Made by a program: the position numbers and the translations under genes
In this document: positions 10,157-35,234 of the stretch, piece by piece
Layout: each line of letters begins with the position of its first letter
How positions within the stretch are numbered: position 1 is the stretch's first letter
Notes under the pieces: generated by a model
Seen by the model: the letters and a program-made list of their open reading frames with translations, nothing else
What the model was told of the DNA's origin: nothing
Databases searched by the model: none
Assembly (NCBI GenBank): GCA_965204985.1
Contig: CBDBFP010000003.1
Coordinates: 316,027-380,026, forward strand
Direction: 5' to 3'
From: Hyphomicrobiales bacterium
GTDB lineage: Bacteria > Pseudomonadota > Alphaproteobacteria > Rhizobiales > CAJQND01
DNA length: 64,000 nucleotides

Positions 10157-10160
10157 GGTT

Positions 10161-10934: not shown

Positions 10935-10953
10935 AGGACGCTCCTCTCTCGCA

Positions 10954-11039
10954 CGTCATTCCCGCGCAGGCGGGAGTCCAGGACAGAATCACTGCGCTCT
11001 TTCGATGGGATCCGGGTGCCCGCCTCCGCGGGCATGACG
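10954..11039. repeat. 86-bp MITE/REP-like intergenic element with ~21-nt terminal inverted repeats
   Basis: The left end is cgtcattcccgcgcaggcggg. The right end is cccgcctccgcgggcatgacg, which is the reverse complement with 2 mismatches. Each arm also contains its own small GC hairpin. Confidence 0.5.
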
Positions 11040-11057
11040 ACGGAACAAGAGGCACAC

Positions 11058-16342: not shown

Positions 16343-16358
16343 TCCGTTATCTCAATTC

Positions 16359-16390
16359 GACCAGCCGCGGCGGTATGTCCGCGGCTGGTC
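16359..16390 (+). terminator. Strong GC hairpin between the binding-protein and permease genes (possible attenuator or mRNA-stabilising stem-loop)
   Basis: gaccagccgcgg-cggtatgt-ccgcggctggtc forms a perfect 12-bp stem. No T-run follows it. Confidence 0.4.
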
Positions 16391-16528
16391 AAACAAACTC
16401 CCTCGGGGGAGGCAACCCTGGCCAATAACAGGGGGGTTACAGGCGATTTGCTGGCGTGGAGGCACCACATCATATAGAGATGTCCCGCTTGGCAGTCTTG
16501 TTTGGCGGAGCTGGTGGGCAATACGGAA

Positions 16529-17557: not shown

Positions 17558-17561
17558 GAAA

Positions 17562-18752
17562 ATGGAAAACAATCAAGCTCTTAAAGATTGGACTCTGTTT
17601 ATCGGCTTTGCCGCTGTCATCCTGCTGTTGCCCATTTTATTGGTGCCACTCGGAGCAGCCTATCCCGATCTGATGCAGAAGATTGCCATCTTTGGAATCT
17701 TCGCCATCGGCTTCAACATCCTGTTCGGGCTGACTGGCTACCTGTCCTTCGGTCACGCCGCGTTTCTGGGTGTCGGCTCGTATACGGCCGTTTGGAGCTT
17801 CAAACTGCTGACCATGAACGCCCTGCCAGCGCTCGTCTTTTCCGTTGCTGTGGCAGGTGTATTTGCCTTGGCAATCGGTTTTGTCAGCTTGCGCCGTTCC
17901 GGCATCTACTTTTCGATCCTCACCCTTGCCTTTGCGCAGATGAGTTACGCTCTGGCCTACTCGGTTCTGGGTAATTCGAACTTCGTCAACCTGACCAACG
18001 GTGAGACTGGCCTTCAGACACGCGCGATTTGCACTGATCCCAGCATCAGCTTGCTTGACTGTGACGTGCGCGTGATCGATCAGGCAATCGGCGTCACGGA
18101 AACAGCTGTGCCGACTCCCAGTTTGTTTGGTTATGCCCTGCAAGGCTACCCCGGTTTTTACTTCTGTGCAGTCTTGCTGATTATCTGCTTCTTTATTGCC
18201 CAGCGGCTGACACGGTCCAATTTCGGCATCATGCTGAAGGCAATTAAATCGAACCAGAACCGGCTAAACTACACCGGCATTCACACTCGTCCCTATCTGA
18301 TCGCAGCTTTCGTGATTTCGGGCATGTATGCGGGTCTGGCCGGAGCTTTGCTCGCGGTTACTGACCCGATCGCCGGAGCGGAACGCATGTTCTGGACGGC
18401 GTCTGGTGAGGTCGTTCTGATGACCATTCTCGGTGGTGTCGGTACGCTGGTCGGCCCGGTATTGGGGGCAGGTCTCATCAAATACGCCGAACAGAAGGTG
18501 TCTTCCTGGAACGAAGGCATTCTGGAGGGCTTTTTCTCTTTCCTGCCGGAAACCCTCCAGCACGCGGTCGTGAAACTCGTCTCGCTGTTTGTGGGCGAGG
18601 GCTGGCACTTCACTTTGGGGCTGCTTTTCATGGTGATCGTGATCTTCTTGCCGGGAGGCCTGATGGAAGGCTTCCGCAGGATCGGTGCCCTGTTCAATCG
18701 CGGCAAATCGGCAAAGACCGACAGCAAAGTCGCCACTCAGCCTGCCGAATAG
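17562..18752 (+). CDS. Branched-chain amino acid-type ABC permease (LivM family)
   Basis: A polytopic membrane protein with [16 protein letters not shown]. The start was taken at MENNQ, just after the LivH stop. Confidence 0.8.
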
Positions 18753-18762
18753 AGGAAATTTC

Positions 18763-19575
18763 ATGTCTGCACAGGAAACCATTGCCGAGGAAGGACGGTC
18801 CTTCGAACGCGGCACACCTAACACCGTGCTCCACATTGATGATGTGCATAAAAGCTTCGCCGGCCTTCATGCACTCTCGGATGTGGACCTGGATGTACAA
18901 GAAGGCGAAACGCACGCGATTATCGGTCCAAATGGGGCAGGCAAATCCACACTGCTCAATGTGTGTGTCGGTCGCCTGAAACCGGACCGCGGTGCCGTTG
19001 TCTTTGACGGAAACGTCTTAACGGGCAAGTCGCCGCACGAAATCAACCAGTTGGGCGTTGCCCGCGTTTTCCAGACGCCGGAAGTCTTTCCGGAACTCAG
19101 CGTCATGGAAAATGTCATGGTGCCGGCTCTTTCAAAGCGCGACGGGCACTTTCGGCTCAATCCGTTCAAGAGTTTCGCTGCAGAAAAGGCTATCCGCGAA
19201 GAAGCTGAACAGGTGATTGAGAATGTCGGCCTGAAAGCAGAATTCACAACCCTCGCTTCATCGCTTTCGCGCGGTGACAAACGCCGCCTGGAACTGGCCA
19301 TGGGCCTGATTCAGCATCCGAGGCTCTTGCTCCTTGATGAACCGACGGCCGGCATGGCGCGCCATGATACCAACGCGACAATCGACCTTCTGAAGCGCAT
19401 CAAGGAAGGCGGCATGACGATAGTGATCATCGAACACGACATGCATGTTGTGTTCTCTCTGGCGGACAGGATCAGTGTCCTTGCCGGCGGGCGCATCATT
19501 GCCCAGGGCACACCCGATGAAGTGAAGGGAAATCCGAAGGTAATCGAAGCCTATCTCGGGGAGGAGCAGGTATGA
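18763..19575 (+). CDS. ABC ATP-binding protein (LivG family)
   Basis: GPNGAGKST, LSRGDKRRLE, and LLLDEP motifs. Confidence 0.85.
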   Translation: MSAQETIAEEGRSFERGTPNTVLHIDDVHKSFAGLHALSDVDLDVQEGETHAIIGPNGAGKSTLLNVCVGRLKPDRGAVVFDGNVLTGKSPHEINQLGVARVFQTPEVFPELSVMENVMVPALSKRDGHFRLNPFKSFAAEKAIREEAEQVIENVGLKAEFTTLASSLSRGDKRRLELAMGLIQHPRLLLLDEPTAGMARHDTNATIDLLKRIKEGGMTIVIIEHDMHVVFSLADRISVLAGGRIIAQGTPDEVKGNPKVIEAYLGEEQV

Positions 19576-20327
19576 GTGTTGCGGTCGAAGAAACTCCACA
19601 GTCCGCCGAAACGACAGGCAAGGATGCCTACTTTTCAATCCAGCACATCAACGCCTATTACGGCGACAGTTATATCGTGCAAGACGTCTCATTCGACATC
19701 GCCGAAGGTGAGATCCTGGCGCTGCTCGGCCGCAATGGAGCAGGCAAGACATCGACATTGCGGTCCATTGCACGGACAGACGAACCCGAGGTGCGGTCAG
19801 GAGAAATCTGGCTGTGTGGCCAAGCAATTCATGACTGCAAATCTCATGAAGCGGCAATGGCCGGTATTCAGCTGGTGCCGGAAGACCGCAGGATCATCCA
19901 GGGCCTGACCGTGGAAGAAAACCTCGACCTGGCAGTCATCTCCGGCGAGAAGGGTTGGTCCTATGATCAACTCTATGATCTGTTCCCGCGACTCAAAGAG
20001 CGGCGCAAACAGGAAGGCACGACCCTGTCCGGGGGTGAACAGCAGATGCTGGCGATTGCGCGAGCTCTGGCCAAAGACATCAAACTACTATTGCTTGATG
20101 AGCCCTACGAAGGTCTGGCACCGGTCGTGCGCCAAGACATTGCAAAGGCACTTGAGCAGGTGCGTGAAGCTGGAATAACCACGATCATTGTTGAACAGAA
20201 TGCGGTCGCAGCTCTTACATTATCCGACCGGGCGGTAATCCTCGACACCGGCGAAGTTGTCTATGACGGCTCAGCAGAAGACGTGCTCGAGAATGAGGAT
20301 TTGCGCCACGAGTATTTGGCGATTTAG
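19572..20327 (+). CDS. ABC ATP-binding protein (LivF family)
   Basis: GRNGAGKTS, LSGGEQQML, and LLLDEP motifs, with an ATGA overlap with the LivG-family gene. Confidence 0.85.
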   Translation: MSVAVEETPQSAETTGKDAYFSIQHINAYYGDSYIVQDVSFDIAEGEILALLGRNGAGKTSTLRSIARTDEPEVRSGEIWLCGQAIHDCKSHEAAMAGIQLVPEDRRIIQGLTVEENLDLAVISGEKGWSYDQLYDLFPRLKERRKQEGTTLSGGEQQMLAIARALAKDIKLLLLDEPYEGLAPVVRQDIAKALEQVREAGITTIIVEQNAVAALTLSDRAVILDTGEVVYDGSAEDVLENEDLRHEYLAI

Positions 20328-20381
20328 AGCCAGCCGAAACTCACAAAAAATTCATTCAATTTATAAGGAGAACCCTTTGCC

Positions 20382-21209
20382 ATGCCTGAAATCAATTACG
20401 ATGACCGGATCGTTTTTGATCCTGAATTGCAGATCATGGAAGTCGATTTTTCTGAACTGACGTTCGACAGGTCGAAACCCGTCAACGCCTTTTACGATGA
20501 AGCCGAGGCACGTCTGGCTGAAACCGGGAAGAAGTGGTTCTTTTTGGTAAATTATCGAGACACAACGATAATGACCGAAGCCTGGATCGCATTTGCGCAT
20601 CGCGGCAAGAAAATCAACTTGGCCTACTCACTTGGGAGCGCCAGATATTCAGCGAGCGATGACACCGGAGAAACAATCATGGAAAGATCGAAAAAGGAAA
20701 ATTTCGATCCAAACCTCTTTGACTCCCGCAAAGCTGCCGTCACTCATCTGATGGCGCTCAGGATCCAGATCCCTAAAGACGAATACGAAAAATCAATAAC
20801 GAAAGCCCCGGATGAACCGAAACTACCTGTATCAGATCGCATCATCTTTCACGACGAAATCAATGTCATGGAAGTGGATTTTAGCGACTATACCTTTGCC
20901 AACAGTGGCAACGTAAAACAGTTCTACGAGACCATCGGAGAAAAGCTCGAAGAGACCGGCCAGAAATGGTATTTTCTGGTGAATTACAACCAGACGGAAA
21001 TTCTCCCGGATGCCTGGTATCAATGGTCTATCAGTTCAAAACGGCTAAATGCCGCCTTTTCACTCGGCACCGTCCGCTTTAATGCAAAGGCAGGAACTCG
21101 CGAAAACATTCAGAAGCGTGCGAACGCTGAACACGCAGATGCAAATCTTGTGGCATCACGTGCCGAGGCGCTCTCCCGGATAGTTGCTATGAAGAATACG
21201 GAAAAATAG
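20382..21209 (+). CDS. Hypothetical protein built from two tandem homologous ~135-aa domains
   Basis: A good RBS (aaggag) lies upstream. The two halves align clearly: DRIVFDPELQIMEVDFSELTF...ETGKKWFFLVNY...AYSLGSARY versus DRIIFHDEINVMEVDFSDYTF...ETGQKWYFLVNY...AFSLGTVRF. Confidence 0.6.
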   Translation: MPEINYDDRIVFDPELQIMEVDFSELTFDRSKPVNAFYDEAEARLAETGKKWFFLVNYRDTTIMTEAWIAFAHRGKKINLAYSLGSARYSASDDTGETIMERSKKENFDPNLFDSRKAAVTHLMALRIQIPKDEYEKSITKAPDEPKLPVSDRIIFHDEINVMEVDFSDYTFANSGNVKQFYETIGEKLEETGQKWYFLVNYNQTEILPDAWYQWSISSKRLNAAFSLGTVRFNAKAGTRENIQKRANAEHADANLVASRAEALSRIVAMKNTEK

Positions 21210-21268
21210 CGAAACCTCGCTTGCTGCGAGAAATGACTCGTGCATCTGAACGGAAGTTTTGACACGTT

Positions 21269-21782
21269 TTATGCTTTCAGTGGTTTTTCCTGATAGGTCC
21301 ATGTGAAGGGCTTTGCTATTGTCTCATTGAAGGGAGCGATGGAGGTCGTGATTCTGGAGTTGAGATCCCTGATTGAGGTGAAGTTTCCACGGCGGATGGC
21401 CTTTCTAACCAGGATTGAGAACCAGATCTCAGTCTGGTTCATCCAGGAAACGTGCCCTGGGGTGAAGTGGAATGTGATGCGGCGGGTTTTACAGCTCAGG
21501 AAGGCGCGCCGACTTCCCATGGTCTTCAGGATGCCGCGTTTGCGTCTCTTATCCAGACCCAGGCCGGAGCCGCAGCGGCGGACGATCAGGTGGACTACGC
21601 TCTCGGGGACATGGATGTTGAGATTGTCGGCCATGATGCGCCATCTGGTTGTCGGGCGGTTGACTTGCGAACGGGCTGTCGAGGAAGGCGGTGAAGTCCT
21701 CTTCGGGGCGCCGCCGTTATCGTCCCGCTGGCCACATCAAAAGCGGCGATTAGGGTCTGGGTGCCGTGGCGGATATATTCAT
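21269..21782 (-). pseudogene. IS630-family transposase, 3' portion (frameshifted)
   Basis: EYIRHGTQTLIAAFDVASG and ADNLNIHV...HFTPGHVSWMNQTEIWFS are IS630/DDE_3 motifs. The two pieces are in different frames. Confidence 0.8.
21777..21782. repeat. Target-site duplication ATTCAT (left copy)
   Basis: The same hexamer occurs at 30169-30174, immediately outside the inserted block. Confidence 0.7.
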
Positions 21783-21932
21783 CCCGCATTTCCCAGGCAG
21801 TTTGCCGATCTTGCTTCGCGTGTGCTACTTTTCATGTTATATTTCAGCGTGTTATTTGGAGCTGGGCGGGTTCTGAGGGCGATTTTCGGTTGGGATTTGA
21901 CCGGCGTGTTCGGCTTGAGTTCCACGGCCCCC
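21783..21932 (+). mobile_element. IS1380-family left-end fragment (copy A, ~150 bp, truncated by low-GC cassette 1)
   Basis: Near-identical to 24698-~24870, which continues into an IS1380 transposase frame. Confidence 0.65.
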
Positions 21933-23005
21933 CTGAACGGCCCCGGCCTCTTGACCTGCCCTCTTGATTTTCAGGGCTTTTTGTCCCAGCCTGTATTACA
22001 GCTCCAGAGGGCTATGAAACCGGGAAGCAGGATATGGAAAACGCCATGAGAACAGTTGCTAAAAAAATCATAGCGCTATTGGGCGTGAGTCTGATTGTCT
22101 TTTCCAGTCTTGGGACAGGTTCCAGTTTTGGGGAAAGATATAGATCTGGTAAGTTAGGATGCGGTGATTTTGAGGATACCGAAAGACAGTATAAAGAACA
22201 ACTCCATGATCCTGATCCTTATGTGAGTGTGACCCTGGTTTATGCTCTTTGTCTTTTATTAAAGGGTGAGGTGACTAAAAATCAGGATGATGTGTCCAAG
22301 GGGATGTTGATTTTACATGGTTTGGCTGATCAACACAGCAATATTGTAGCTAATTATTGGATAGCAGAATACCATGTTTCAGGAGGGAGTTTCAACCAAA
22401 ATGTAGCTGACAAGAATTTGGATTTGGCCGCCAAGTATTATTCAAGAACACTGGCTATCATCAAGACTTATAACAGCTACCCTCCTCTTATTTACAGTAT
22501 GTGGGAGGAAACTGATAATATAGAGGACAGCTTATTATAATTTACCTCTTGTTTATTTAGAAATGTTTTATAACGGGGTTGCTGGTGACTACCGGGTTAG
22601 GTTGCTTAACTCTCCCAGTTATAAAGGAGATCGTGATTTGAAAACTTATCCTGAATACAGAGATAATATTATGGGTTATATTGATTTAGCGATAGAGCAT
22701 GCGGGGAATTGTAAAAATCTTCCTCTCAAGAGGCATTTCAATAAGCATTCTTCTTATTACATAAAGGTTTGTGCCATGTATGAGGAGAAAGCCAGGCTTT
22801 TAAAAGAAGCTTATGTGAAAAGTCAGTTTATTTTAAATCAGGACAGGTGTAAGGATATAGGATCCGATGAAACAGTTTTTGCCTATTGCCCTGAACATGA
22901 TGAGACAGAACACAAAATTATAGATACTTATAACTCTATATTTAAAGAAACTAAGAAAATACTTTACCCCATTCGTGACCTTCTTGTATCATCTCCTAAT
23001 AATTA
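21933..23005 (+). repeat. Low-GC cassette, direct copy 1 (starts CTGAACGGCCCCGGCC, ends CTCCTAATAATTA)
   Basis: It aligns along its length with 23632-24695. Confidence 0.8.
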
Positions 23006-23006
23006 G
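22034..23006 (+). pseudogene. Sel1/TPR-like repeat protein with an N-terminal signal or anchor, copy 1 (frameshifted near 22525)
   Basis: ORFs 22034-22540 and 22563-23006 together match the single ORF of copy 2. There is a 2-bp deletion relative to copy 2 (gaggacagcttattataa versus gagatgatatcttattataat). Confidence 0.7.
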
Positions 23007-23519
23007 GATCTATAAAAACCCTCTTTTTTCAGCATAGAGTAAATGCCTCGTACAGGACGCACCGCTCTCCGGTCCCGGTCTTCCCGGACCCCTGCTTGCG
23101 AGGTCGGCGCGCGGGACCGAAAGGGTAAAACCGTTCTGCCTTGGTTGTCCCGGTTCCGGGCCCTGATCGCCGGCGCCGCAGCCCTTGTTGAGCTTGTCCC
23201 TGGTTTCCCTGCAGTTGCTGGCGCTTGATGGACGATCATACTCTGCTGCTGACAGCTTGATGTCATTGGCTGGGCCCAGAGAAATCGTTCATGAACAGAT
23301 GTTCATGAACCTCCCTGATTCAATTGCAGAGCTTGCGGTCATGTAAGAAATTTCAAGTTTCCTTGCACGTAATAACAGTCACCTATGCGGAATATGGACC
23401 TGAATTCAGAAATATGAACGGCACATACGGTTGTCAGTGTTCGTTCACGGAGGCCCTGTCACAGTGCTGCGTCATCGTCAATCAGAATGGCGAACGAAAA
23501 GCAGAAAGGAGATCTAATC

Positions 23520-23631
23520 ATGAAAAAGTCCCGTCGAATAGCCGCTGCTGCGGCAGTATCCCTGACTTTACTGACGAGTGCCTCGGCTCCGGCTTCTGCT
23601 GTCCTCCCGTCGGACCTCCAGCGTCCTGCTT
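23520..23631 (+). pseudogene. 5' stub of a secreted-protein gene, truncated by cassette copy 2
   Basis: An aaggag RBS 9 nt upstream of the ATG, followed by MKKSRRIAAAAAVSLTLLTSASAPASA (a signal peptide with an AxA site). The frame runs straight into the cassette boundary. Confidence 0.45.
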
Positions 23632-24695
23632 CTGAACGGCCCCGGCCCCTCGGCCCGCCCTCTTGCAGGGCTTTTTGTCCCAGCCTGTATTACAGCTCCA
23701 GAGGGCTATGAAACCGGGAAGCAGGATATGGAAGACGCCATGAGAACAGTTGCTAAAAAAATCATAGCGCTATTGGGCGTGAGTCTGATTGTCTTTTCCA
23801 GTCTTGGGACAGGTTCCAGTTTTGGGGAAAGATATAGATCTGGTAAATTTGGATGTGATTTTGAGGAAGAAGAAAAAGCTTATATGGAACAACTCCATGA
23901 TCCTGATCCTTATGTGAGTGTGACCTTAGTTTATGCTATTTGTCTTTTATTAAAGGGTGAGGTGACTAAAAATCAAGATGATGTGTCCAAGGGGATGTTG
24001 ATTTTACATGGTTTGGCTGATCAACACAGCAATATTGTAGCTAATTATTGGATAGCAGAATACCATCTTTCAGGAGGAGATTTCAAAAGTATAGCTGACA
24101 AGAATTTGGATTTAGCCGCCATGTATTATTCAAGAACACTGGCTATCATCAAGACTTATAATAGCTACCCTCCTCTTATTTACAGTATATGGGAGGAAAC
24201 TGATAATATAGAGATGATATCTTATTATAATTTACCTCTTGCTTATTTAGAAATGTTTTATAACGGGGTTGCTGGTGACTACCGGGTTAGGTTGCTTAAC
24301 TCTCCCAGTTATAAAGGAGATCGTGACTTAAAAACTTATCCTGAATACAGAGATAATATTATGGGTTATATTGATTTAGCGATAGAGCATGCGGGGAATT
24401 GTAAAAATCTTCCTCTTAAGAGACATTTCCGGAAGTCTTCTGATTCTTATTACATAAAGGTTTGTGCTATGTATGAGGAGAAAGCTAAGCTTTTAAAAGA
24501 AGCTTATGTGAAAAGCAGTTTATTTTAAATCAGGACAGGTGTAAGGATATAGGATCCGATGAGACAGTTTTTGCCTATTGTCCTGAAATTGATGAGGCAG
24601 AATTGAAAATTGTCAATACTTATTACTCTATATTTAAAGAAGTTAAGGAAATACTTTACCCTATTCGTGACCCTTGTATCATCTCCTAATAATTA
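23632..24695 (+). repeat. Low-GC cassette, direct copy 2
   Basis: Same ends and content as 21933-23005. Confidence 0.8.
23728..24693 (+). pseudogene. Sel1/TPR-like repeat protein, copy 2 (frameshifted near 24517 and again near 24670)
   Basis: Intact through the position where copy 1 is broken. There is a 1-bp deletion relative to copy 1 (aaaagcagttta versus aaaagtcagttta). The C-terminal ~55 codons remain recognisable out of frame. Confidence 0.7.
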
Positions 24696-24697
24696 AG

Positions 24698-25740
24698 CCC
24701 GCATTTCCCAGGCAGTTTGCTGATCTTGCTTCGCGTGTGCTACTTTTCATGTTATATTTCAGCGTGTTATTGGGCGCTGGGCGGGTTTCATGGCACACTC
24801 AAAGGGGGCAGGTTCTGAGGGCGGTTTTCGGTTGGGATTTGACCGGCGTTTCGGCTTGAGTTCCACGGCTCCAGGATCGGCTCCGATGGCGGCCTGCTGC
24901 CCTTTCGGGAGGTGGACGAGGTGTTGGGGCTGCACGATCTGGCAGGCCACTCACTGCAGGACACGCGGCGTGGCAAGAAGGGCAGTCACACGCTTGTCGG
25001 TCTTCTGCGGCAGTCTGCCTTTGGGCGGCTTGCCGGATATCCAGACGTCAATGACGCCGGGCGTCTCGCGCGTGATCCTGTCATGCGCCAGATCGTGGGC
25101 GGTCGCGCGGTCGATGGATTGACAGGAGGCATGACGCGCCCCCACGGCGATCGGGAAGGCACGGCCTGGAACGGTCACTTCGGGTGCAAATGCCATCATC
25201 CCCTCTTTGTGTTCAACCAGTCTGGCGATCTTGAGCGCTGCGCCCTGCGCAAGGGCAATGTCCACAGCGCCGATGGCTGGAAGGAGGTTCTGGCCTCTGT
25301 CATCGCCCGATACAAGGGGCGCGACCTGATGCGGTTCTTTCGGGCCGATGCCGCCTTTGCCCTCCCGGAGCTTTACGAGATGCTGGAAGCGGAAGGTTAT
25401 TTCCACACCATCCGCCTGAAGGGCAACAATGTGCTTCAGGAGATCGCCGACTGGTCCCTGACCAGCATTCAAAGTCGCCGTGTCAAAATTGGCGCGCGTG
25501 GTGTGCGTCATGCCCGTGCCATCCCCTTCCAACTGGCCGGGGTTGCGGTGCCCCGCAACATCTTCGGAAAAATCCTGGCCGCCATCCGCCCCCTCAAACC
25601 ACCGCCGAGGCCCGCCTGACGGGCAACATGTGCGAAGCTGAGCAAAAGCGGCTCGATACCTGTGTTATGCGGACGGCAAAAAGCCCGGACTCGGCGGAAA
25701 GCCGTGGCGCCCCGAACCCTGCGTTCGCCTGGGTGTCGTG
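24698..25740 (+). mobile_element. IS1380-family element, copy B, with a defective transposase; the right boundary is approximate
   Basis: The left end is identical in type to 21783. The transposase C-terminus ILAAIRPLKPPPRPA ends at 25619. The right inverted repeat is not clearly recognisable. Confidence 0.65.
24790..25619 (+). pseudogene. IS1380-family transposase with an N-terminal frameshift and a large internal deletion
   Basis: Motifs seen: RLEFHGSRIGSDGGLLPFREVDEVLGL, RQSAFGRLAGYPDVNDAGRLARDPVMRQIVG, and HPLFVFNQSGDLERCALRKGNVHSADGW. About 275 codons in total, against the ~450 I recall for the family. The junction is at VLQEIAD/WSLTS. Confidence 0.75.
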
Positions 25741-26913
25741 TCGCCCTTCTGCGACAACCAGACATTGTCGATGCTCGCTGATCTCACCAGCGCCAAAAAA
25801 CCACCGATATTCATCGGACGCTCCGACGAACTTGCGCCGGTGCCAAGCTCCACGCTCGACGGCTTCGGTCGCGTGGCTGTGCTCGACGAAATGGCGACCA
25901 CAGAAGACGGAGAAGAGGCCGATGCGATCGCATTGCAGGGGCTTCATGCCAAGGCTTTCATCGCCGAGCGCGGTTGGGACACCGCAATCACGGTCGGCTC
26001 CGGAAACGCCACGCGACCCGCCCTCGACGGAAGCAATGTCGAGATATTTGCGACCCTGACCGGCAAGCGATCGCGAGTCGGCAGTGTTGAGGAAATTCTC
26101 GGCGACAAGGGCTTCGGCCGGTTGACACGACCATTCGTCCGCGACGAGCTGAGTGATGAGCTGCTTAGTGCCAATGCTGCCCGACGACAGGCAGAGAGGC
26201 GATTGGACCTGGCCCGGCGCGAGATTTGCCGCAGCAACCTCCGGCTCCGTTGCGAACGCACGGAGCCTGCCGATGACGGCACGCCGACCTGGCGGGTCTT
26301 TTTGGTCCCGTCCGGGCCGCTCTCCCTTGCCGGGGTCGGCCGCCTGCGTGTTTGGCCGATCACGCGGGGCGCTGGTCATGAGCGCAACGCGCTCGGTCCA
26401 CTCCGGCTAGGACAGTGCGCCGACCTGGGAGCAATGCCGCTGGTCGACCTTACGCGCTTCCTTGCCTTTCACCTCACAGACCAGGAAAAGGAGGATGTCT
26501 CCCTCCTGTTCAGCACCGGGCTCGTTATGGATGGACTGCCCTCCGAGGAGCGTCGCGCCGCGATCCTGCGCTGGGTGATCGACAGCAAGGATACCTTCTT
26601 CCGGTATCTCCGGCTGCTTCTCTCCGAGCCGGGGGATCCGTTTGCCGCCGCGCTGGCCGCCCAGGATGGACAAGGTCATGGCGCATGGCGCACTGCAAGC
26701 GACGACTCGCCCATCCTTGAGGAAATGGTCCGCGCCTTCTGCCGAGGCGGCGATCAGGATCAGCTCCGCGCCATCGAACGGCTGATCGCACGTCTGAAGA
26801 GTGGAGACGACGATCGCACCGATCCGATTCCGGACGAGTTCCGCTCTCTCTGGGAGACATTTCGGATTGCGCGCGACGCGCAGCCCGCGCAGGATGCCTC
26901 CCATGCCGACTGA
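25738..26913 (+). CDS. PLD-family (single HKD) nuclease-like protein with a ~260-aa uncharacterised C-terminal region; probably 5'-truncated
   Basis: HKD motif LHAKAFIAE...GSGNAT at nt 25945-26006. There is no ATG or SD at the 5' end; the tracked start is a GTG directly abutting IS1380 sequence. The stop overlaps the helicase start. Confidence 0.65.
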   Translation: MSPFCDNQTLSMLADLTSAKKPPIFIGRSDELAPVPSSTLDGFGRVAVLDEMATTEDGEEADAIALQGLHAKAFIAERGWDTAITVGSGNATRPALDGSNVEIFATLTGKRSRVGSVEEILGDKGFGRLTRPFVRDELSDELLSANAARRQAERRLDLARREICRSNLRLRCERTEPADDGTPTWRVFLVPSGPLSLAGVGRLRVWPITRGAGHERNALGPLRLGQCADLGAMPLVDLTRFLAFHLTDQEKEDVSLLFSTGLVMDGLPSEERRAAILRWVIDSKDTFFRYLRLLLSEPGDPFAAALAAQDGQGHGAWRTASDDSPILEEMVRAFCRGGDQDQLRAIERLIARLKSGDDDRTDPIPDEFRSLWETFRIARDAQPAQDASHAD

Positions 26914-29900
26914 ACGGTTCCGCGCCGAAACGGCACTCGCTCCCCTCAAGGTCTTTCAGCGGCGCACCGTCGATTATGTCTTCGACCGGCTCTATTGCCC
27001 GAACGACCCTGTCCGCCAGTTCCTGGTCGCTGACGAAGCCGGTCTTGGCAAGACGATGGTGGCGCGCGGGGTCATTGCCCGCATGATCGAACATCTTTGG
27101 GACAGCACGAAACGCATCGACATCCTCTATATCTGCTCGAACCAAGCGATCGCGGCCCAGAACCTCAACCGACTGAACGTCCTCGGCCGCCGCGAGCTGG
27201 CCCGGCCAACCCGAATGACCCTCATTCCGCTGCAACTGGAAGGCCTCGACGCCAACAAGGTGAACTTCATCAGCTTGACGCCGGGCACGACCTTCAATTT
27301 GAGCTCCGCGACCGGGGTGGTGCAGGAACGCGCCCTCCTGTTCCATCTCCTGCAAGACCTCGTTCCCCGGCCCCGTGGACTGCGCAACCTGTTGCAGGTC
27401 AATGTCGGCATCGACGGCTGGAACCGCGCCGTGGACAACCTAGCTGTCGACGGCGTTGACAAGCACATCATCGAGCGCTTTCGCCGCGACGTGCAGGAGA
27501 ATCGAAATCTCTTCGAGGAACTTGAGAGTGTCTGTGACCTCTTCCCGCGCCGTCGTGACAGCTATCCCCCGGACAGGACGCAGCGCCGCAATAGCCTGAT
27601 CGATCGACTGCGCGCCAAGCTGTCCCACGCCTGCGTGGACGCGCTACAGCCGGATCTGATCATCATGGATGAGTTTCAGCGGTTTCGGGACTTGCTGCAC
27701 GGTGGAAGCGACGCTGCGATCCTCGCGCGCGAACTGTTCGACTACTCCGGGACCGAGGGGCACTCGGCCCGCACCCTGCTGCTATCCGCGACCCCCTACC
27801 GGATGCTCACGCTCCGCGGCGATGAACCCGACGAAGACGATCACTATGAAGATTTCCTCAAGACATTGCGTTTTCTCTACGGAGAGAAAGGGCCGGAGGT
27901 GGCGCACACGCTGACCAGAGAAATGCGGGCCTTCCGCGACCATTTGCGTCGTCTCCCGCAATCGCAATCGTATGATCTGGCAGTTGCGGCGCGTGAGACC
28001 ATCGAACAGCGGCTGCGCAGGGTGATGGCACGAACCGAACGCGTCGCGTCCACGATTGAACGCGACTCCATGATGGACGAACCGACCATACCTGTTTCGG
28101 TCGCGCCCGCTGACCTCACGCAGGCATCCGCCGTTTCGCAAGTGGCGCACAGGCTCAATGCCCCGGAGATCATCGAATACTGGAAATCCTCGCCCTACCT
28201 GCTCAACTTCATGCATCACTACAAACTGAAGCAACTGCTGCGGGCGCAGATCGACGTTCCTTCTGCGCCGCTCCCGCTCCGCAATGCAATCCGAGCGGCA
28301 CGATCAGCTATGCTCGATCGCGATGCGATCGACGGCTACGAGCCGCTGGAGCCCCCGAACGGCCGCATGCGGGCGATCATTGACGACATATTCGATCGGC
28401 GTCTCGAACAGAATCTCTGGATACCCGCCGCCATGCCCTATTATGGCGCTGCGCGATCCGATCCTCCGCTGACAAAGGCGCTAATATTCTCTTCCTGGTC
28501 CATGGTTCCCGATGCGATCGCTGCCCTTCTGTCCTACGAAGCAGAACGGCGCATGGGGGTCGGAGAATCCGGCCGACCTTATTCCGAGCAGCATCATCAC
28601 TTGAGACCCTTGCAGTTCCGGCGGAATCAGGGACGGCTCGCCGGCCTTCGCGCGCTTTTGCTAATTTATCCATCACCGTCTCTGGCGGAACTGGCGGATC
28701 CGCTCGCGGTCTTCGCCGAGACCAAGACGACGTTGTCGCAGAAAGCCATGCGTTTAGCGATCGGCAAGCGGCTCAAGCCCCACCTCGAAGCGCTGCAACG
28801 CGCCGCAACTCCACGGAAGGACGCGGGCAGCGCCGAATGGGCCGCACCCGCCATGATCGACGATATGCGAGACACACGCTCCCGCGCATGGCTACTAGGG
28901 GAGTCTGACGGAATGGGCGCCTTGGCAAGCGAAGATGCTTTCCAGGCCCATGTCGCCAAATTGGCGACGACAGCGGCGAACCGCGACATTGACGCCTCAA
29001 CTGCCAATCTTTCCGAACTCCTCGTCGATGTGGCGCTAGGCAGCCCGGCGGTTTGTGCGCTTCGCGCTCTCAAAAGGATCGCGCCTGAGTTGGAATGGGA
29101 TGACTGCCGCTTGCTGAGCGCCGCTGCCCGGGTCGCATGGTCCTTCCGGACCTTGTTCAACCAGCATGATGCGGTTGCACTGCTCCGCCGGGGTGCCGAC
29201 GATCGCTACTGGCATCGCGTGCTGACCTATTGCGCGGACCACAATCTCCAGGCGGTCCTTGACGAATACGCCCATTATCTTGTCGAGGCCGAAGGCCTAG
29301 GGGTTCGTCCGGCAGGGGAACGTGCGGTTGGCGTGGGAAAGGCGATGGCTTCGGCCCTGGCCATCCTCCCGTCGCAGATCGAGGTTGACGACGTGCAGGT
29401 CGATGGTGAATCGCTCGCGATCCGCAAATTTCGTATGCGTGGGCGCTTCGCGATGCGGCTCGCCGACTACAGGGACGAGGAAGGCGCAGTCGCCCGTCTC
29501 GGGGTGGTGCGGGATGCGTTCAACTCACCGTTCCGGCCTTTCGTTCTCGCGACGACGTCCGTTGGTCAAGAAGGGCTCGACTTCCATCCCTATTGTTACC
29601 ACGTCTACCACTGGAACCTTCCGAGTAACCCAGTGGACCTGGAGCAACGCGAGGGCCGCGTCCATCGGTTCAAGGGCCACGCGATACGCCTCAATCTGGC
29701 GGAACGCCAAGCCGGCGTCGTCCGGGGCCGTGGTCAGTCACCCGACGATCCGTGGAAACTGATGTTCGAACAGGCACGATCGGAGGCGGCGGTCGACAAC
29801 GATCACAACGATCTTATCCCCTATTGGATCTACGAGGGTTCTGTCCGGGTTGAACGGCGTGTACCGATGCTGCCTTTCAGTCGGGAAATTACACGACTCG

Positions 29901-30073
29901 CTTGGCTCAAGCGCAGCCTCACGGTCTATCGCCTAGCCTTCGGCCAGCAGCGGCAGGACGATCTGCTGGATTACCTGCAATCCCTCGTCGGCACAGGCAT
30001 GGACACCTCCAGGCTCGACAAGCTGCAAATTAGTCTCGAACCACCGGAACTTCCCGACGAGTCAGAACGATAG
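26894..30073 (+). CDS. SNF2/DrmD-like superfamily-2 helicase (~1059 aa)
   Basis: Motif I ADEAGLGKT (27041-27055), II DEFQ (27668-27679), III SATP (27785-27796), VI QREGRVHR (29645-29668). The start is ATG 26894 or 26903. Confidence 0.8.
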   Translation: MPPMPTERFRAETALAPLKVFQRRTVDYVFDRLYCPNDPVRQFLVADEAGLGKTMVARGVIARMIEHLWDSTKRIDILYICSNQAIAAQNLNRLNVLGRRELARPTRMTLIPLQLEGLDANKVNFISLTPGTTFNLSSATGVVQERALLFHLLQDLVPRPRGLRNLLQVNVGIDGWNRAVDNLAVDGVDKHIIERFRRDVQENRNLFEELESVCDLFPRRRDSYPPDRTQRRNSLIDRLRAKLSHACVDALQPDLIIMDEFQRFRDLLHGGSDAAILARELFDYSGTEGHSARTLLLSATPYRMLTLRGDEPDEDDHYEDFLKTLRFLYGEKGPEVAHTLTREMRAFRDHLRRLPQSQSYDLAVAARETIEQRLRRVMARTERVASTIERDSMMDEPTIPVSVAPADLTQASAVSQVAHRLNAPEIIEYWKSSPYLLNFMHHYKLKQLLRAQIDVPSAPLPLRNAIRAARSAMLDRDAIDGYEPLEPPNGRMRAIIDDIFDRRLEQNLWIPAAMPYYGAARSDPPLTKALIFSSWSMVPDAIAALLSYEAERRMGVGESGRPYSEQHHHLRPLQFRRNQGRLAGLRALLLIYPSPSLAELADPLAVFAETKTTLSQKAMRLAIGKRLKPHLEALQRAATPRKDAGSAEWAAPAMIDDMRDTRSRAWLLGESDGMGALASEDAFQAHVAKLATTAANRDIDASTANLSELLVDVALGSPAVCALRALKRIAPELEWDDCRLLSAAARVAWSFRTLFNQHDAVALLRRGADDRYWHRVLTYCADHNLQAVLDEYAHYLVEAEGLGVRPAGERAVGVGKAMASALAILPSQIEVDDVQVDGESLAIRKFRMRGRFAMRLADYRDEEGAVARLGVVRDAFNSPFRPFVLATTSVGQEGLDFHPYCYHVYHWNLPSNPVDLEQREGRVHRFKGHAIRLNLAERQAGVVRGRGQSPDDPWKLMFEQARSEAAVDNDHNDLIPYWIYEGSVRVERRVPMLPFSREITRLAWLKRSLTVYRLAFGQQRQDDLLDYLQSLVGTGMDTSRLDKLQISLEPPELPDESER

Positions 30074-30168
30074 ATATACCCAACCTGGCCGCGCTGCAGC
30101 GTGCGGGGAACCTGGCAGGCACTGCAGTGGCTCCCATAGCCCTATTCGTTTCAACGCGAGAATCAGGA

Positions 30169-30174
30169 ATTCAT
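30169..30174. repeat. Target-site duplication ATTCAT (right copy)
   Basis: Identical hexamer to 21777-21782. Confidence 0.7.
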
Positions 30175-30639
30175 ACTCCCTGCAGGCAACCCGTCCCGGT
30201 GCCGGAGGCAGATCGGGCATTGCACGCTCAAGGGCCCGGATAGCCCCATCTCATCAATCCTGAGGGTGCGGATGCCGACCTCGGCGAAGCCTGGGTCTCG
30301 TCATAGACCCGGACGACATCGGCACATTTGTCAGCAAACAGCGGCTCTGGCTTGGCAGTCAGCCAGAACCGGAAGCGGTGGAGCTTAAGGCTGGATTCTT
30401 TTCAAAAAACGCTCTACCGAGCGCTGCGAAACTTCATCCACAATGCCACGTCTCTCCGCCTCATCAGCCAGGTCCTGCCGGCTTCAGAGGCTGACCGGCA
30501 GGCCTCTCGCGGACGGCTGCTCACAAGCCAGCGCCGCCCGCTCACCGTCTTGCGCCACACCCCGGGCTTCGCCGGCGTAACCGCCCAAGTTCAGATCGTT
30601 CTTCAGAGGACAAAAATGCGACCAGGTCGACGGCCATAA
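30169..30639 (-). pseudogene. IS630-family transposase, 5' portion (multiple frameshifts)
   Basis: Minus-strand translation in shifting frames gives MAVDLVAFLSSEERSELGRLRR, VDEVSQRSVERFLKRIQ, LKLHRFRFWLTAKPEPLFADKCADVVRVYDE, and AIRALERAMPDLPPAPGRVACREYE. Confidence 0.75.
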
Positions 30640-30910
30640 AATCCTCCTGTGATCAGCGAATCAGACCACAGAAAATCAAAAATCCATCAAATCCTCAAAC
30701 AAAATCAAAGAGTCACAACTTCCGTTCAGGTGCACTAGGGCATTGAATAACTGCGCCCTTGCGAGTTGTAGCCCGCTGTCCTAGTCTACGGTATCTGAAT
30801 GGGCCGGATCTTTGATATTTTGCAACAGTAACAACCTGTGGGCAAAAATTTCTGGCTGCATAAGATTGGCGTGGCATTAAGCGCACATTTGCTTCATTGG
30901 AGGACATTTA

Positions 30911-32155
30911 ATGAACAAGACTGTAACAATCTTTCTGGGGGCAGCGATGCTGCTGTTCGGAACATTGACTGCTTCGGCAGCAGAGACCGTGAAAATCGCA
31001 TTCATTGACCCTCTTTCCGGGCCTTTTGCAGCAACTGGCTACCAGGGTCTGGCTCACTACCAGTTTGCTGCTGAAGAACTCGTCAACAAGAAGGGCGGCG
31101 TACTTGACGGCAAAAAATTCGAGATCGTCCCATTCGACAACAAGATCAGCCCGAAAGAGTCCCTTATCCAGCTTAAGGTCGCCATTGATCGGGGCATCCG
31201 TTTCATCGCTCAAGGCAACTCTTCCGGTGTCGCCAATGCCTTGACGGACGCGATCAAGAAACACAACAAGCGCAATCCGGACAAGCGCGTAATTTTCCTG
31301 AACTACTCAGCGGTCGATCCGGCCTTGACCAACAAGAAGTGCAATTTCTGGCACTTCCGGTTCGACGCAAACGCCGACATCAAGATGGACGCCCTCACTG
31401 ACGTGATTGCCCAAAATGCGGACATCAAGAAGATCTATGTAATTGGGCAAGACTATTCGTTCGGCAAAGCCGTTGCGGCTGCGGCTGTCAAGTTTATCGG
31501 CCAGAAGCGACCGGATATCAAGATCGTTGGCAACGAACTACATCCCATCGGAAAGGTGAAGGATTTTACGCCGTATGCCCGCAAAATCATGGCTTCCGGT
31601 GCAGATGCCATCATCACAGGCAACTGGGGATCCGACATGGTTGGTCTCGGCAAATTCGTCATCGCGTCCGGCTTCAAAAAGCCCATATACACGTATTATG
31701 CCGCGGGAACAGGCATCACCAAAACCTTTGGTGCGGCTGGCAAAGGACCACTGAAAATTGTTGCTGAAGGCTCGATCAATCCTCCAGCTTCTGATCGCGC
31801 AGCAGCTTATTCAAGGGCTTTTAAGGCAAAATTCCCAGATCGCGACCTTGGTCAACCGCGCATCGCGAACGTGGTGGAGATGCTCGCCAAAGCAATCAAC
31901 AAGGCGGGCAGTGATACAGATATGGTTGCTGTCGCCAAAGCGTTGGAAGGCATGGAGCATGATGGCATATTCGGTTCGAAAATTGTCATGCGTGCCGTTG
32001 ATCACCAAGCAATCCAGGATGTGCACATCCAAGCACATACAGACGAAGGCATCACTTTCGATTTCGATAATTCGGGCTACGGCCTGGCTGTTGAAAGCAC
32101 CGTGAAGATGGCATCCGCAGACAGTGCAACGACTTGCCAAATGAAGCGGCCCTGA
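30911..32155 (+). CDS. ABC transporter substrate-binding protein (LivK/branched-chain amino acid family)
   Basis: Signal peptide plus ETVKIAFIDPLSGPFAATG, followed by LivHMGF-type genes. Confidence 0.85.
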   Translation: MNKTVTIFLGAAMLLFGTLTASAAETVKIAFIDPLSGPFAATGYQGLAHYQFAAEELVNKKGGVLDGKKFEIVPFDNKISPKESLIQLKVAIDRGIRFIAQGNSSGVANALTDAIKKHNKRNPDKRVIFLNYSAVDPALTNKKCNFWHFRFDANADIKMDALTDVIAQNADIKKIYVIGQDYSFGKAVAAAAVKFIGQKRPDIKIVGNELHPIGKVKDFTPYARKIMASGADAIITGNWGSDMVGLGKFVIASGFKKPIYTYYAAGTGITKTFGAAGKGPLKIVAEGSINPPASDRAAAYSRAFKAKFPDRDLGQPRIANVVEMLAKAINKAGSDTDMVAVAKALEGMEHDGIFGSKIVMRAVDHQAIQDVHIQAHTDEGITFDFDNSGYGLAVESTVKMASADSATTCQMKRP

Positions 32156-32229
32156 TTGACCACCTGAGGAAAACGTACTGGGTGCATTAGGTATCGAAAG
32201 AGTGGCGAACGCCACTCAAAGGGACGGTA

Positions 32230-33186
32230 GTGTCACTGGTCTTTGTTAATCTGCTTGACGGTCTTGTGACAGGCCTCTTGCTGTTCATGCTCTGCAGCGG
32301 ATTGACGTTGATCTTTTCGATGATGGGCGTGCTGAATTTCGCCCACGCCAGCTTTTACATGCTGGGCGCCTATTTCGGCTATCAGATCAGCACTTTCGTC
32401 GGGTTTTGGCCTGGGCTCGTATTGGCACCCATTATCGTTGGCGTGGCAGGCGCATTGGTTGAACGCTACGGACTAAGGCGCGTGCACAAATTCGGGCACG
32501 TCCCTGAACTTATTTTCACGTTCGGGCTGGCGCTACTTATTGAAGAGGTTGTGCAGTTTTTCTGGGGTAAGAGCCAGATGGCTTTCGAGCCGCCCGAAGC
32601 CCTGAACTTCATGGCCTTTGCAATCGCGGGCAATGCGTTCCCTGCCTACAAGGTCTTCATGATCTTCGCCGCGATCGGAATATTTTTGGTGCTGCTCTAT
32701 ATCCTGACCCGGACGCGGGTCGGCATGATCATTCAAGCCGCTTTGTCTTATCCGGCAACGGTCCAGAACCTCGGACACAACGTGCCCCTTATTTTCATGG
32801 CTGTTTTCGGCGTTGGAACCGCCCTTGCGGGTTTGGCCGGAGTGATCGCGGGACCAGTGCTCGGCACATTCCCCGGGATGGCCGTCGTCCTTGGCAGCAT
32901 TGTGTTCGTGACGATCGTGGTCGGCGGGCTCGGTTCGCTCTGGGGCGCCCTCGTTGCGTCGCTGCTCATTGGATGGCTGCAAACCTTCGCAGCCTCATAC
33001 AACGTGACGATGAAAGACGTTTTGACCAGCTTGGGCATAGCCGAACCGGCCAATGTTGCAGAAAGCGCACTACGCGATCTGTGGTCCCTGACCCTGCCCC
33101 AGATCGGTCCTATACTGCCCTACCTGCTCATGGTGCTCGTGCTTGCTATCAGGCCGCAGGGCCTCCTGGGGAAACGGGAAACATGA
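32230..33186 (+). CDS. ABC permease (LivH family)
   Basis: A polytopic membrane protein with a GTG start and LNFAHASFYMLGAY. Confidence 0.8.
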   Translation: MSLVFVNLLDGLVTGLLLFMLCSGLTLIFSMMGVLNFAHASFYMLGAYFGYQISTFVGFWPGLVLAPIIVGVAGALVERYGLRRVHKFGHVPELIFTFGLALLIEEVVQFFWGKSQMAFEPPEALNFMAFAIAGNAFPAYKVFMIFAAIGIFLVLLYILTRTRVGMIIQAALSYPATVQNLGHNVPLIFMAVFGVGTALAGLAGVIAGPVLGTFPGMAVVLGSIVFVTIVVGGLGSLWGALVASLLIGWLQTFAASYNVTMKDVLTSLGIAEPANVAESALRDLWSLTLPQIGPILPYLLMVLVLAIRPQGLLGKRET

Positions 33187-34475
33187 GCACGGCGCAGCAA
33201 GAAAACAGATCCGCTGCAAAGCAGGGCGGAGCGATCAACTGGCTGTATATCAGCCCTTGGATTGTTGCTGCACTGATCCTTGCGACGCTTCCATTGATCT
33301 TTCCATCAGGTGCCGGATTGACCATCATGAACCAGATGGCAATCACGATCATTTTCGCCCTTGCCTACAATATGTTGCTAGGTCAAAGCGGAATGCTGTC
33401 TTTTGGACATGCGGTCTACATGGGTCTGGGAGGCTTTTTCTGCGTCCACCTGATGAACATGGTCGAATATGATGGCCTGTTATTGCCGCTGCCGTTCCTA
33501 CCGCTTTTCGGGGGTCTGTTCGGCCTGCTGTTCGCGATAATCGTCGGCACTTTTTCCACCCGACGCGCTGGTACCGTGTTTGCGATGATTTCGCTCGGCG
33601 TTGGAGAACTCATCGCCGCATGTTCAATCATTGTCGTCGCCTTCTTTGGAGGCGAAGAAGGTGTCAGCGGGGACCGCACAATGGGCACCACAGTGTTCGG
33701 CTACGATTTTGCGTCACAAATCGAAGTCTATTATTTGACCGCTGCTTGGCTCCTCATCTCGGCCTTGGCGATGTACCTATATTCCAGAACTCCCGCAGGC
33801 CGGATGGCTAACGCCGTAAGAGACAATGAAGAGCGCGCGGAATTCCTGGGCTACTCTCAGCGCCGGGTTCGTTTCATGTCATTTTGCGCATCAGGATTTT
33901 TCGCTGGGATCGCAGGGGCATTGTTCGCGATTAACTTCGAAATCCTGACAGAAGAAAATTTGAACCTGGCCACCTCGGGTTCTGTGCTGCTTGTGACATT
34001 TCTTGGCGGTGTTGGTTTTTTCATCGGCCCGATCATTGGCGCAATCATCTTTACCATCCTTCAGACGATCCTCAGCCTCTACACAGAAATCTGGCAACTC
34101 TACCTTGGCATTCTCTTTGTTATGACCGTGATGTTTTTTCCCTTTGGATTGACAGGCCTGATTGCCATTCACTTCCGGCCCTATCAACTCGGAAAACTGG
34201 GTTTGCTTGTGAAGCCTTACCTGCAGATCGTCGCACCGGCAGTGTTGTTCGCCCTATCAGCAGCCGCAATTCTCGAAATATTGTTCCACGCAAAACACGC
34301 AACTCCTGGCAACGAAATCATGTCGCTGATGGGCATAAGGTTCAATTCTCACTCACCGATACCTTTGGCTTTGGCCGTTTGCGCTATGCTGATCTCGGGC
34401 TGGCTTTTGAGATCCCTCATCCCCTCATTCAAGGAATCCTGGGATGAAGCAAATCACGCTGGATCAGGCCAATGA
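33183..34475 (+). CDS. ABC permease (LivM family)
   Basis: The start at MSTAQQ gives an ATGA overlap with the LivH-family gene. Contains GMLSFGHAVYMGLGGF. Confidence 0.8.
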   Translation: MSTAQQENRSAAKQGGAINWLYISPWIVAALILATLPLIFPSGAGLTIMNQMAITIIFALAYNMLLGQSGMLSFGHAVYMGLGGFFCVHLMNMVEYDGLLLPLPFLPLFGGLFGLLFAIIVGTFSTRRAGTVFAMISLGVGELIAACSIIVVAFFGGEEGVSGDRTMGTTVFGYDFASQIEVYYLTAAWLLISALAMYLYSRTPAGRMANAVRDNEERAEFLGYSQRRVRFMSFCASGFFAGIAGALFAINFEILTEENLNLATSGSVLLVTFLGGVGFFIGPIIGAIIFTILQTILSLYTEIWQLYLGILFVMTVMFFPFGLTGLIAIHFRPYQLGKLGLLVKPYLQIVAPAVLFALSAAAILEILFHAKHATPGNEIMSLMGIRFNSHSPIPLALAVCAMLISGWLLRSLIPSFKESWDEANHAGSGQ

Positions 34476-35233
34476 CAGCGCCCGCAATCCAGATAGAGGA
34501 TTTGTCAAAGAGCTTCGGCAAAGTGGAAATTATCCGCAACATCAATCTCGCAATTTATAAAGGCGAACGCCACGCGATCATTGGCCCCAACGGCGCGGGC
34601 AAATCGACAATGTTCAATCTCATTACTGGCAAGTATCAACCCACAATAGGGTCTGTCCTGCTGAACGGCGAGAATATCAGCGGTCTGAAACCCTTTGAAA
34701 TCAACCGAGAGGGGCTCAGCCGCAGCTTTCAGATCACCAATATTTTCCCGAAAATGAGTGTCTTTGAGAATGTGCGCTGCGCCCTCCTCTGGACCATGGA
34801 CTTCAAATATTCCTTTTGGCACCTGGTCGACCGCCGTCCGGATCTGTCGGAAAGAGCGCACGATATCCTTGCGCAGATCAACCTTTCTGAAAAGCATGCG
34901 ATGGCGGCCGGTGTTCTCACATATGCGGAACAACGCGCCTTGGAGATCGGGATCACGATTGCCGGTGGCGCGGATATCATCATGTTGGACGAACCAACTG
35001 CCGGGATGAGCGCGTCGGAAACTGATTACATCGTAGGACTGATCCGAAAGGTCACGGAAAGCAAAACCCTGGTGGTCGTTGAGCATGATATGGGCGTGGT
35101 ATTCGATCTTGCGGACCGGATTTCAGTTCTGGTTTACGGCGAAATAATCGCGACCGATACACCAGAGCAGGTCCGGGCCAACTCGCGCGTCCAGGAAGCC
35201 TATCTGGGCACTGCATTAGAAGCGGAGACCTGA
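34472..35233 (+). CDS. ABC ATP-binding protein (LivG family)
   Basis: GPNGAGKST Walker A, IMLDEP Walker B, and a LivG-like layout. Confidence 0.85.
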   Translation: MTAPAIQIEDLSKSFGKVEIIRNINLAIYKGERHAIIGPNGAGKSTMFNLITGKYQPTIGSVLLNGENISGLKPFEINREGLSRSFQITNIFPKMSVFENVRCALLWTMDFKYSFWHLVDRRPDLSERAHDILAQINLSEKHAMAAGVLTYAEQRALEIGITIAGGADIIMLDEPTAGMSASETDYIVGLIRKVTESKTLVVVEHDMGVVFDLADRISVLVYGEIIATDTPEQVRANSRVQEAYLGTALEAET

Positions 35234-35234
35234 A

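Follow-up and report, generated by a model that had tools for sequence, protein, structure and literature searches.

The stretch analysed here (the window) comprises 64,000 nucleotides, positions 316,027 to 380,026, of contig CBDBFP010000003.1 from a Hyphomicrobiales bacterium (assembly GCA_965204985.1), and within it positions 21240–30735 hold an insertion sequence (IS) of the IS630 family that is interrupted by 8.39 kb of other DNA. We consider it probable that this arrangement arose from two nested transposition events, the IS630-family element arriving first and an 8.4-kb unit, mobilised from one end by an IS1380-family element, then entering it. The inserted unit, left unnamed in an earlier reading made from the sequence alone (hereafter the sequence-only reading), is best described as an IS1380-family-driven mosaic carrying a broken Azaca system. 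The parts of the IS630 element and of the duplication that marks the insertion are as follows.

21240–21782, minus strand: 3′ part of the IS630 relic, with the C-terminal transposase part (DDE_3; tblastn matches to residues 271–398) and the inverted repeat at 21240–21265
21777–21782, unstranded: left target-duplication copy ATTCAT, part of the IS630 sequence; one copy is required for a gap-free alignment
30169–30174, unstranded: right target-duplication copy ATTCAT; TTCAT at 30170–30174 if the duplication is truly 5 bp
30169–30735, minus strand: 5′ part of the IS630 relic, the N-terminal part of a pseudogene, heavily frameshifted and ~220 bp short, with the inverted repeat at 30710–30735
30736–30737, unstranded: TA next to the IS630 relic, within CTAG-like sequence; its left counterpart at 21238–21239 is TC

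The outer boundaries are those of an IS630-family element. The terminal inverted repeats, 21240–21265 against the reverse complement of 30710–30735, match at 23 of 26 positions on recounting, the same figure as in the sequence-only reading, and a repeat finder extends the pair to 32 nt at 84% (21237–21268 and 30707–30738), which makes it the longest of all inverted repeats between 20.5 and 31.5 kb. The closest related elements are one in an alphaproteobacterial metagenome-assembled genome (MAG; GCA_024227565.1, JAAEUE010000245.1, 295–1620; L026) and one on an ENA contig (ERZ25072854 ctg32716; L027); their terminal repeats are homologous to those of the relic, begin GTGCA or GTACA, and are flanked on both sides by TA within CTAG. 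The right flank of the relic follows this pattern, reading GTGCAC-TA-G, and the left reads C-TC-GTGCAT, where TC is one substitution away from the expected TA and fits the ~12% divergence between the two repeats. The element occupies the region between a 275-amino-acid (aa) gene that ends at 21209 and a binding-protein gene that starts at 30911.

The inner junctions can be read to the base. The C-terminal part of the transposase runs to 21782 and the N-terminal part resumes at 30169, as previously claimed, and the hexamer ATTCAT is read directly at both places; the identity between the copies is confined to these six bases, with T versus A preceding them and C versus A following. When 21240–21782 is joined to 30175–30735, which removes 21783–30168 together with one hexamer, a 1104-bp element is restored, whose uninterrupted joint is GGGAGTATGAATATATCCGCC and whose minus strand across the joint reads ...PGRVACREYEYIRHGTQTLIAAFDVASG... 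This restored sequence aligns without gaps to intact IS630-family relatives at both the protein and the DNA level (REYEYIRHGTQTLIAAFDV). Because the hexamer is 6 bp long, being in frame is by itself no test, as zero, one or two copies all keep the frame; the EYEY of the relatives is obtained with one copy only, two giving EYEYEY and none EY. Ten intact or near-intact IS630-family proteins span the joint without a gap, and the motif R-E-x-E-Y-x-R-H-G-T is invariant or nearly so among them. Within the alignment the joint lies in the block of highest conservation, with the consensus PGxVxRREYEYIRHGTQTLIAAFDVATG, in which R, E, E, Y, R, H, G and T are invariant. The two related elements are likewise gap-free across the joint at the DNA level (for example GGGAATACGAATATATCCGCCACGG against GGGAGTATGAATATATCCGCCACGG in the window). 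The in-frame joint that the sequence-only reading took for an IS630 motif is thus borne out by ten proteins and two DNA elements, and REYEYIRHGT, whose absence from intact relatives it had named as grounds for giving up the restoration, stands in their consensus. The gap-free joint indicates that the insertion was clean and that the hexamer is a target duplication.

The family assignment of the host element is secure, and its state is one of advanced decay. A stitched 250-aa translation has 2870 homologues at E<=1e-10, annotated as IS630 family (best E 4.6e-90), with 65–68% identity in the best protein match, and Pfam DDE_3 matches the 121-aa open reading frame (ORF) at 21269–21634. The NCBIfam IS630 model scores 77 bits, under its 100-bit cut-off, as expected because the gene is a frameshifted pseudogene. 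With the family the relic shares DDE_3, the REYEYIRHGT...DNLN.H motifs, the GTGCA start of the repeats and what may be a TA/CTAG-type site, and its nucleotide identity to the closest MAG element is 77% over 920 bp. It differs from these relatives in its left dinucleotide, TC in place of TA, and in being dead by every sign of its coding sequence: stop codons occur in every frame of the restored element, and tblastn with intact homologues of ~398 aa has to use frames 3, 1, 2, (1), 3, (1), 2, at least five frame changes, with residues ~25–103 uncovered, a deletion of ~80 N-terminal codons in the helix-turn-helix (HTH) region. By these features the 1104-bp element is a decayed relic of a family member, not an active one. 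The earlier statement that the ORF is restored therefore holds for the local frame at the joint but not for the whole ORF, and the transposase gene remains a pseudogene once the insert is taken out. Similarly, a length of about 1104 bp does lie within the range of the family, as had been noted, but is ~220 bp below that of the closest relative (1326 bp). No second copy of the relic is present within the window, and we found no uninterrupted near-identical element and know of no active one, plasmid matches reaching only 69–80% over short stretches. The relative on the ENA contig (1–4644), an intact 398-aa transposase gene, lies amid a dense cluster of mobile elements that includes a second DDE_3 fragment, an IS1595 transposase, an IS3-type HTH gene and a group II intron reverse transcriptase.

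The DNA enclosed by the duplication is 8,386 bp long and is a mosaic, neither a simple element nor a conventional transposon. Its components, in which IRL and IRR denote the left and right inverted repeats of an IS, are listed below.

21783–30168, plus strand: the inserted 8,386-bp unit, flanked by the duplication; its left edge is exactly an IS1380-family IRL and its right edge is non-IS DNA
21783–21928, plus strand: IS1380-family left end (copy 1), the first 146 bp, starting with the IRL CCCGCATTTCCCAGG; truncated
21933–23005, plus strand: B1, AT-rich paralogue of an uncharacterised secreted family of ~313 aa, split by a frameshift into ORFs 22034–22540 and 22563–23006
23006–23631, unstranded: spacer between the B copies, unique, 626 bp, with a 24-nt palindrome at 23287–23310
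23632–24695, plus strand: B2, second AT-rich copy, ORF 23728–24528; frame lost in the C-terminal part by comparison with the 313-aa homologues
24698–25685, plus strand: IS1380-family element (copy 2), IRL at 24698–24715, transposase pseudogene
25686–26913, plus strand: zacB′, 5′-truncated phospholipase D (PLD)-nuclease gene, residues ~222–618; PADLOC ZacB profile positions 233–582 of 586
26903–30073, plus strand: zacC, full-length superfamily 2 (SF2) helicase gene, 1056 aa; PADLOC ZacC 1130 bits, profile positions 4–1016 of 1019
30074–30168, plus strand: 95-bp tail after zacC, ending ...GCGAGAATCAGGA; presumed surrogate right end

The left boundary of the insert coincides base for base with the start of a conserved IS1380-family IRL, which begins CC. 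The repeat CCCGCATTTCCCAGG aligns with those of an IS1247-like element (CCCACATTTCCCAAG), a Phaeobacter IS1380 element (CCCGCATTTCCCAAG) and ISKpn23 (CCCACATTCCCCAAG), and its 18-mer occurs twice in the window (21783 and 24698) against 0.1 occurrences expected. Copy 1 is 94–96% identical to 24698–24869, the IRLs of the two copies being identical over their first ~29 nt; a 27-bp stretch with the transposase start codon is missing from it, and tblastn matches only residues 7–27. Copy 2 is the more complete, matching Pfam DDE_Tnp_1_4 (PF13701) at 3.5e-48; it scores under the cut-off of the NCBIfam IS1380 model (NF033539, 1e-34) because ~150 residues of the transposase are deleted (~50 of residues 19–267, and ~268–368), and it has a frameshift near 24900. 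Its transposase is ~52% identical by tblastn to those of the IS1247-like and Phaeobacter elements, and its nucleotide sequence is ~72% identical to ISKpn23 and the IS1247-like element. The IRL is shared with IS1247 and ISKpn23 at 13–14 of 15 positions, and so is the layout, in which it stands ~90 bp ahead of the start codon. The copies described here differ in being defective (copy 1 reduced to 146 bp, copy 2 with internal deletions and no IRR), and their sequence diverges too far for them to count as an isoform of any named IS.

An IRR is found neither at 30168 nor where copy 2 ends, and no site lies within three mismatches of the reverse-complemented IRL. Copy 2 ends ~66 bp past its stop codon, where the relatives have ~160 bp more before their IRR. 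A candidate IRR for copy 2 at 25658–25673 (11/16) was rejected, as it aligns with internal post-stop DNA of the relatives, ~160 bp before their true IRR. A scan of GTDB representative genomes with 23 nt of the IRL found nothing. In a corresponding scan of JGI metagenomes one contig (L017, Ga0209102_1003867, 1565–1589) gave a 25-nt exact match, CCCGCATTTCCCAGGCAGTTTGCTG; the AT-rich DNA around it is unrelated and no transposase follows it. The match may be a solo IS end. Scanning the locus for promoters and terminators gave nothing that bears on its origin.

The 3′ half of the cargo derives from Azaca, an anti-phage system composed of ZacA (DUF6361), ZacB (a PLD nuclease) and ZacC (an SF2 helicase). 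No tblastn match to zacA occurs in the window, and zacB lacks its first ~221 codons, being cut exactly where the IS sequence stops; tblastn with the Ralstonia and Niveispirillum ZacB proteins begins at 25687. What is retained is well conserved, with the 11-bp gene overlap seen in Ralstonia, 77–83% identity of ZacC to its homologues over the full length, and 83% nucleotide identity of zacB′–zacC, from zacB nucleotide 663 to the zacC stop, to the closest intact locus (L028, Logan SRR35204271, 1–15153), which comprises zacA, zacB and zacC. Matching DNA 3′ of zacC was sought in intact Azaca loci, and identity stops at the zacC stop codon. Around the intact locus itself lie UvrD-like helicase/nuclease genes together with those for ArdC and ParB, so it looks to sit on a conjugative or integrative mobile element. 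DNA cleavage by Azaca in vitro required all three proteins (bioRxiv 10.1101/2025.07.10.664194); as the remnant is incomplete, we predict that it is inactive as Azaca.

These features suggest the following course. An IS630-family element, originally ~1.3 kb, would have entered a CTAG/TA site between 21209 and 30911. On a donor replicon, an IS1380-family copy with the IRL that is now at 21783 would have stood upstream of B1, the spacer, B2, copy 2 and zacB′–zacC, and its transposase would have paired this genuine IRL with an unrelated distant sequence ending at 30168 in place of an IRR. The DNA between the IRL and this surrogate end (the two AT-rich paralogues, the second IS1380 copy and the 3′ two-thirds of the Azaca operon) would thereby have been carried, and the block would have transposed in a single step, as one unit, into an AT-rich part of the IS630 transposase gene, duplicating 5 or 6 bp. 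Copy 1 would have been intact when the move took place, and would afterwards have lost the DNA from position 147 to just upstream of B1. In later decay both IS1380 copies would have lost essential parts, both AT-rich genes would have become frameshifted, and the IS630 host would have degenerated. In its present state the structure can no longer move unless a transposase acts on it in trans. The order given in the sequence-only reading, IS630 first and then a single 8.39-kb insertion, accords with the gap-free joint, with the homology of the outer repeats to those of relatives, and with the start of the insert at the IRL of a different IS family.

One-ended movement of this kind is known from IS1380-family elements. 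The transposable modules (TMos) formed by ISPme1 and IS1247a in Paracoccus consist of a single IS and adjacent 3′ DNA of variable length (PMC9330008; PMC3281130), and ISEcp1 (ISEc9) has moved up to 36 kb with a 5-bp duplication, using surrogate right ends that match at 3–12 of 14 positions (PMC12116815). The unit described here resembles both in having a single IS1380-family IRL at one edge, in carrying 3′ DNA that in those systems is of variable length, in a far edge that lies in ordinary DNA with little likeness to an IRR, and in a short duplication that flanks the whole; as in the known modules, the cargo follows the IRL on the side towards which the transposase gene reads. Such modules are recognisable only after landing in known sequence (PMC3281130), a role that is played here by the IS630 relic. 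Unlike the experimentally trapped TMos, the present unit is read from sequence alone and its driving IS is no longer intact, and its cargo is a defence-system fragment with uncharacterised genes, whereas the TMos and ISEcp1 units carry resistance or catabolic genes.

The length of the duplication is open to two readings. The claim of a 6-bp duplication stands insofar as six identical bases are present, but the true duplication may be TTCAT (5 bp) with one base shared by chance (p = 0.25), or it may be a genuine 6 bp; with 5 bp the inserted unit would end ...CAGGAA at 30169. The direct repeat of IS1247, the closest relative that has been characterised, is 5 bp (PMC3281130 Table 2), and 4–5 bp are given for the IS1380 family as a whole (PMC12116815). 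Within the IS630 transposase gene, the insertion point is where the AT content is highest, ...TATATTCATAC...

Several observations weigh against one-ended transposition of the whole unit. Six identical bases are one more than the 4–5 bp given for the family and than the 5 bp of IS1247. The right end of the unit (...GAGAATCAGGA) matches IRR sequences at only 7/16 positions, inside the range given for ISEcp1 surrogate ends but a score equalled by ~9% of random positions in the window; we had considered this likeness as positive evidence and dropped it, as it is not above chance. The unit ends in A, whereas a terminal G of the surrogate end is reported to be important for ISEcp1 (PMC12116815), and a much better IRR-like site inside zacC, the best of the cargo, 27914–27929 (ACCAGAGAAATGCGGG, 13/16 to the reverse-complemented IRL), was left unused. 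Both IS1380 copies of the unit lack a functional transposase gene, and searches of GTDB representative genomes and JGI metagenomes yielded no intact copy of the element. The internal mosaic, with its two IRLs and duplicated B segment, implies further rearrangements, before or after the insertion. Lastly, the left junction was seen in no second assembly, contigs L009 and L010 stopping at 21553 and 21639 respectively.

The mosaic is also what gives some weight to an origin in several steps, in which a smaller unit (for example 24698–30168, copy 2 with zacB′–zacC) was inserted first and the left 2.9 kb (the IRL fragment, B1, spacer and B2) was added later, either in a second round of transposition or when IS1380 copies recombined or underwent gene conversion. 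Two IRLs stand in direct repeat at 21783 and 24698, the B segments are duplicated and there are several internal deletions, and 24698–30168 alone shows the classical layout of an IS with downstream DNA. The flanking sequence points the other way: it is the outer IRL, at 21783, that the hexamer directly adjoins, rather than the inner one, and the TTAAG that precedes the inner IRL is no duplicate of TTCAT and belongs to the end of the B gene, since B1 ends likewise. Moreover, for a later insertion to fall precisely at the boundary of the first duplication and the first IRL, and to leave no duplication of its own, is improbable, and overall we regard assembly in steps as unlikely. A tandem duplication relating IRL–B1 to B2–IRL was also considered and set aside, as 23006–23631 has no second copy.

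The two B segments are 92.6% identical to one another and both frameshifted, with ~35% GC in surroundings of 52–62% GC. Proteins of this family have a signal peptide and no Pfam domain; homologues at 74–84% identity are found in many long MAG contigs, with several paralogues to a genome, and a third, truncated copy (P0254, 236 aa) is present elsewhere on the 2.7-Mb source contig. The near-perfect 24-nt palindrome in the spacer (23287–23310, GTTCATGAACAGATGTTCATGAAC) also scores as a terminator-like hairpin on the minus strand.

Could the insert have been joined without a transposase? Illegitimate recombination at six bases of microhomology (ATTCAT) might have captured a circular or linear foreign fragment, its coincidence with an IS1380 end being secondary. 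This would account for a right end without IRR-like sequence and for six identical bases, atypical of IS1380, and by inspection the right-joint sequence CAGGAATTCAT is partly like the IRR core GGAATGCA, which could itself be microhomology. It leaves unexplained why the left edge coincides to the base with a repeat recognised by a transposase, for which a random breakpoint has a chance of ~1 in several thousand, and direct repeats with exact restoration of the target are the signature of transposition through a staggered cut; we therefore think such a capture very unlikely. That one or both junctions are assembly chimeras formed at repeated IS sequence is hardly credible: although no second contig covers the left junction, metagenome contigs break within the IS630 parts, and a JGI contig (L008) has pieces of the window reordered and leaves it at 21610, a chimera would produce neither a precise 6-bp duplication nor a gap-free restoration of motif and DNA, an independent assembly (L002) shows the same right junction, and the relic is single-copy in the window.

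The independent assembly is a Logan contig that matches window positions 29077–33266 at 99.76% without gaps, spanning zacC, the right junction, the IS630 sequence and the binding-protein gene. The JGI contig (3300000051, Botbay15_c000996) holds window segments in the order 9755–11962, 5595–9051, 19921–21610 and 15565–18079, and departs from the window within the C-terminal part of the IS630 transposase into an aminotransferase fragment; either the assembly is chimeric or the strain is rearranged. A further contig, L001, leaves the window after 35931. Look-ups of exact proteins (the 168-aa B1 product, three ZacC start variants, P0121 and a 64-aa ORF across the left junction) returned none on record. 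The host is a poorly sampled alphaproteobacterium that is also present in several metagenomes at 99.8% identity. The nearest genomes to the flanking 275-aa gene are at 51–62% identity (Methyloligellaceae, Hoeflea and other Hyphomicrobiales MAGs), and a search for the empty site by way of this gene was uninformative, as relatives at no more than 62% identity are not syntenic downstream. The window as a whole (1–64000) is crowded with ATP-binding cassette (ABC) transporter sets of the branched-chain amino-acid type (Peripla_BP_6, BPD_transp_2, ABC_tran), and the relic lies between two such clusters, for example 14999–20327 and 30911–35936.

The 1056-codon zacC is intact and the 409-codon zacB′ is open while all the other genes of the unit have decayed, and one might suppose that selection has kept them as a working two-gene nuclease–helicase module that dispenses with ZacA and with the N-terminus of ZacB. 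We think this decidedly improbable, but if it were true, one-ended transposition of the IS1380 type would be a route by which parts of anti-phage systems are trimmed and moved.

Nested IS insertion and one-ended mobilisation by IS1380-family elements are both well documented, and the locus presents no new mechanism or system; its significance is modest. Its value lies in the dead IS630 element, which has acted as a natural trap and fixes both ends of an IS1380-driven module to the base, something that according to the Paracoccus studies is usually impossible in silico. The locus thus yields a relative order of events, and it adds an uncultured, Hyphomicrobiales-like genome to those in which this mechanism is documented, the cargo here being a fragment of a defence system rather than a resistance gene.

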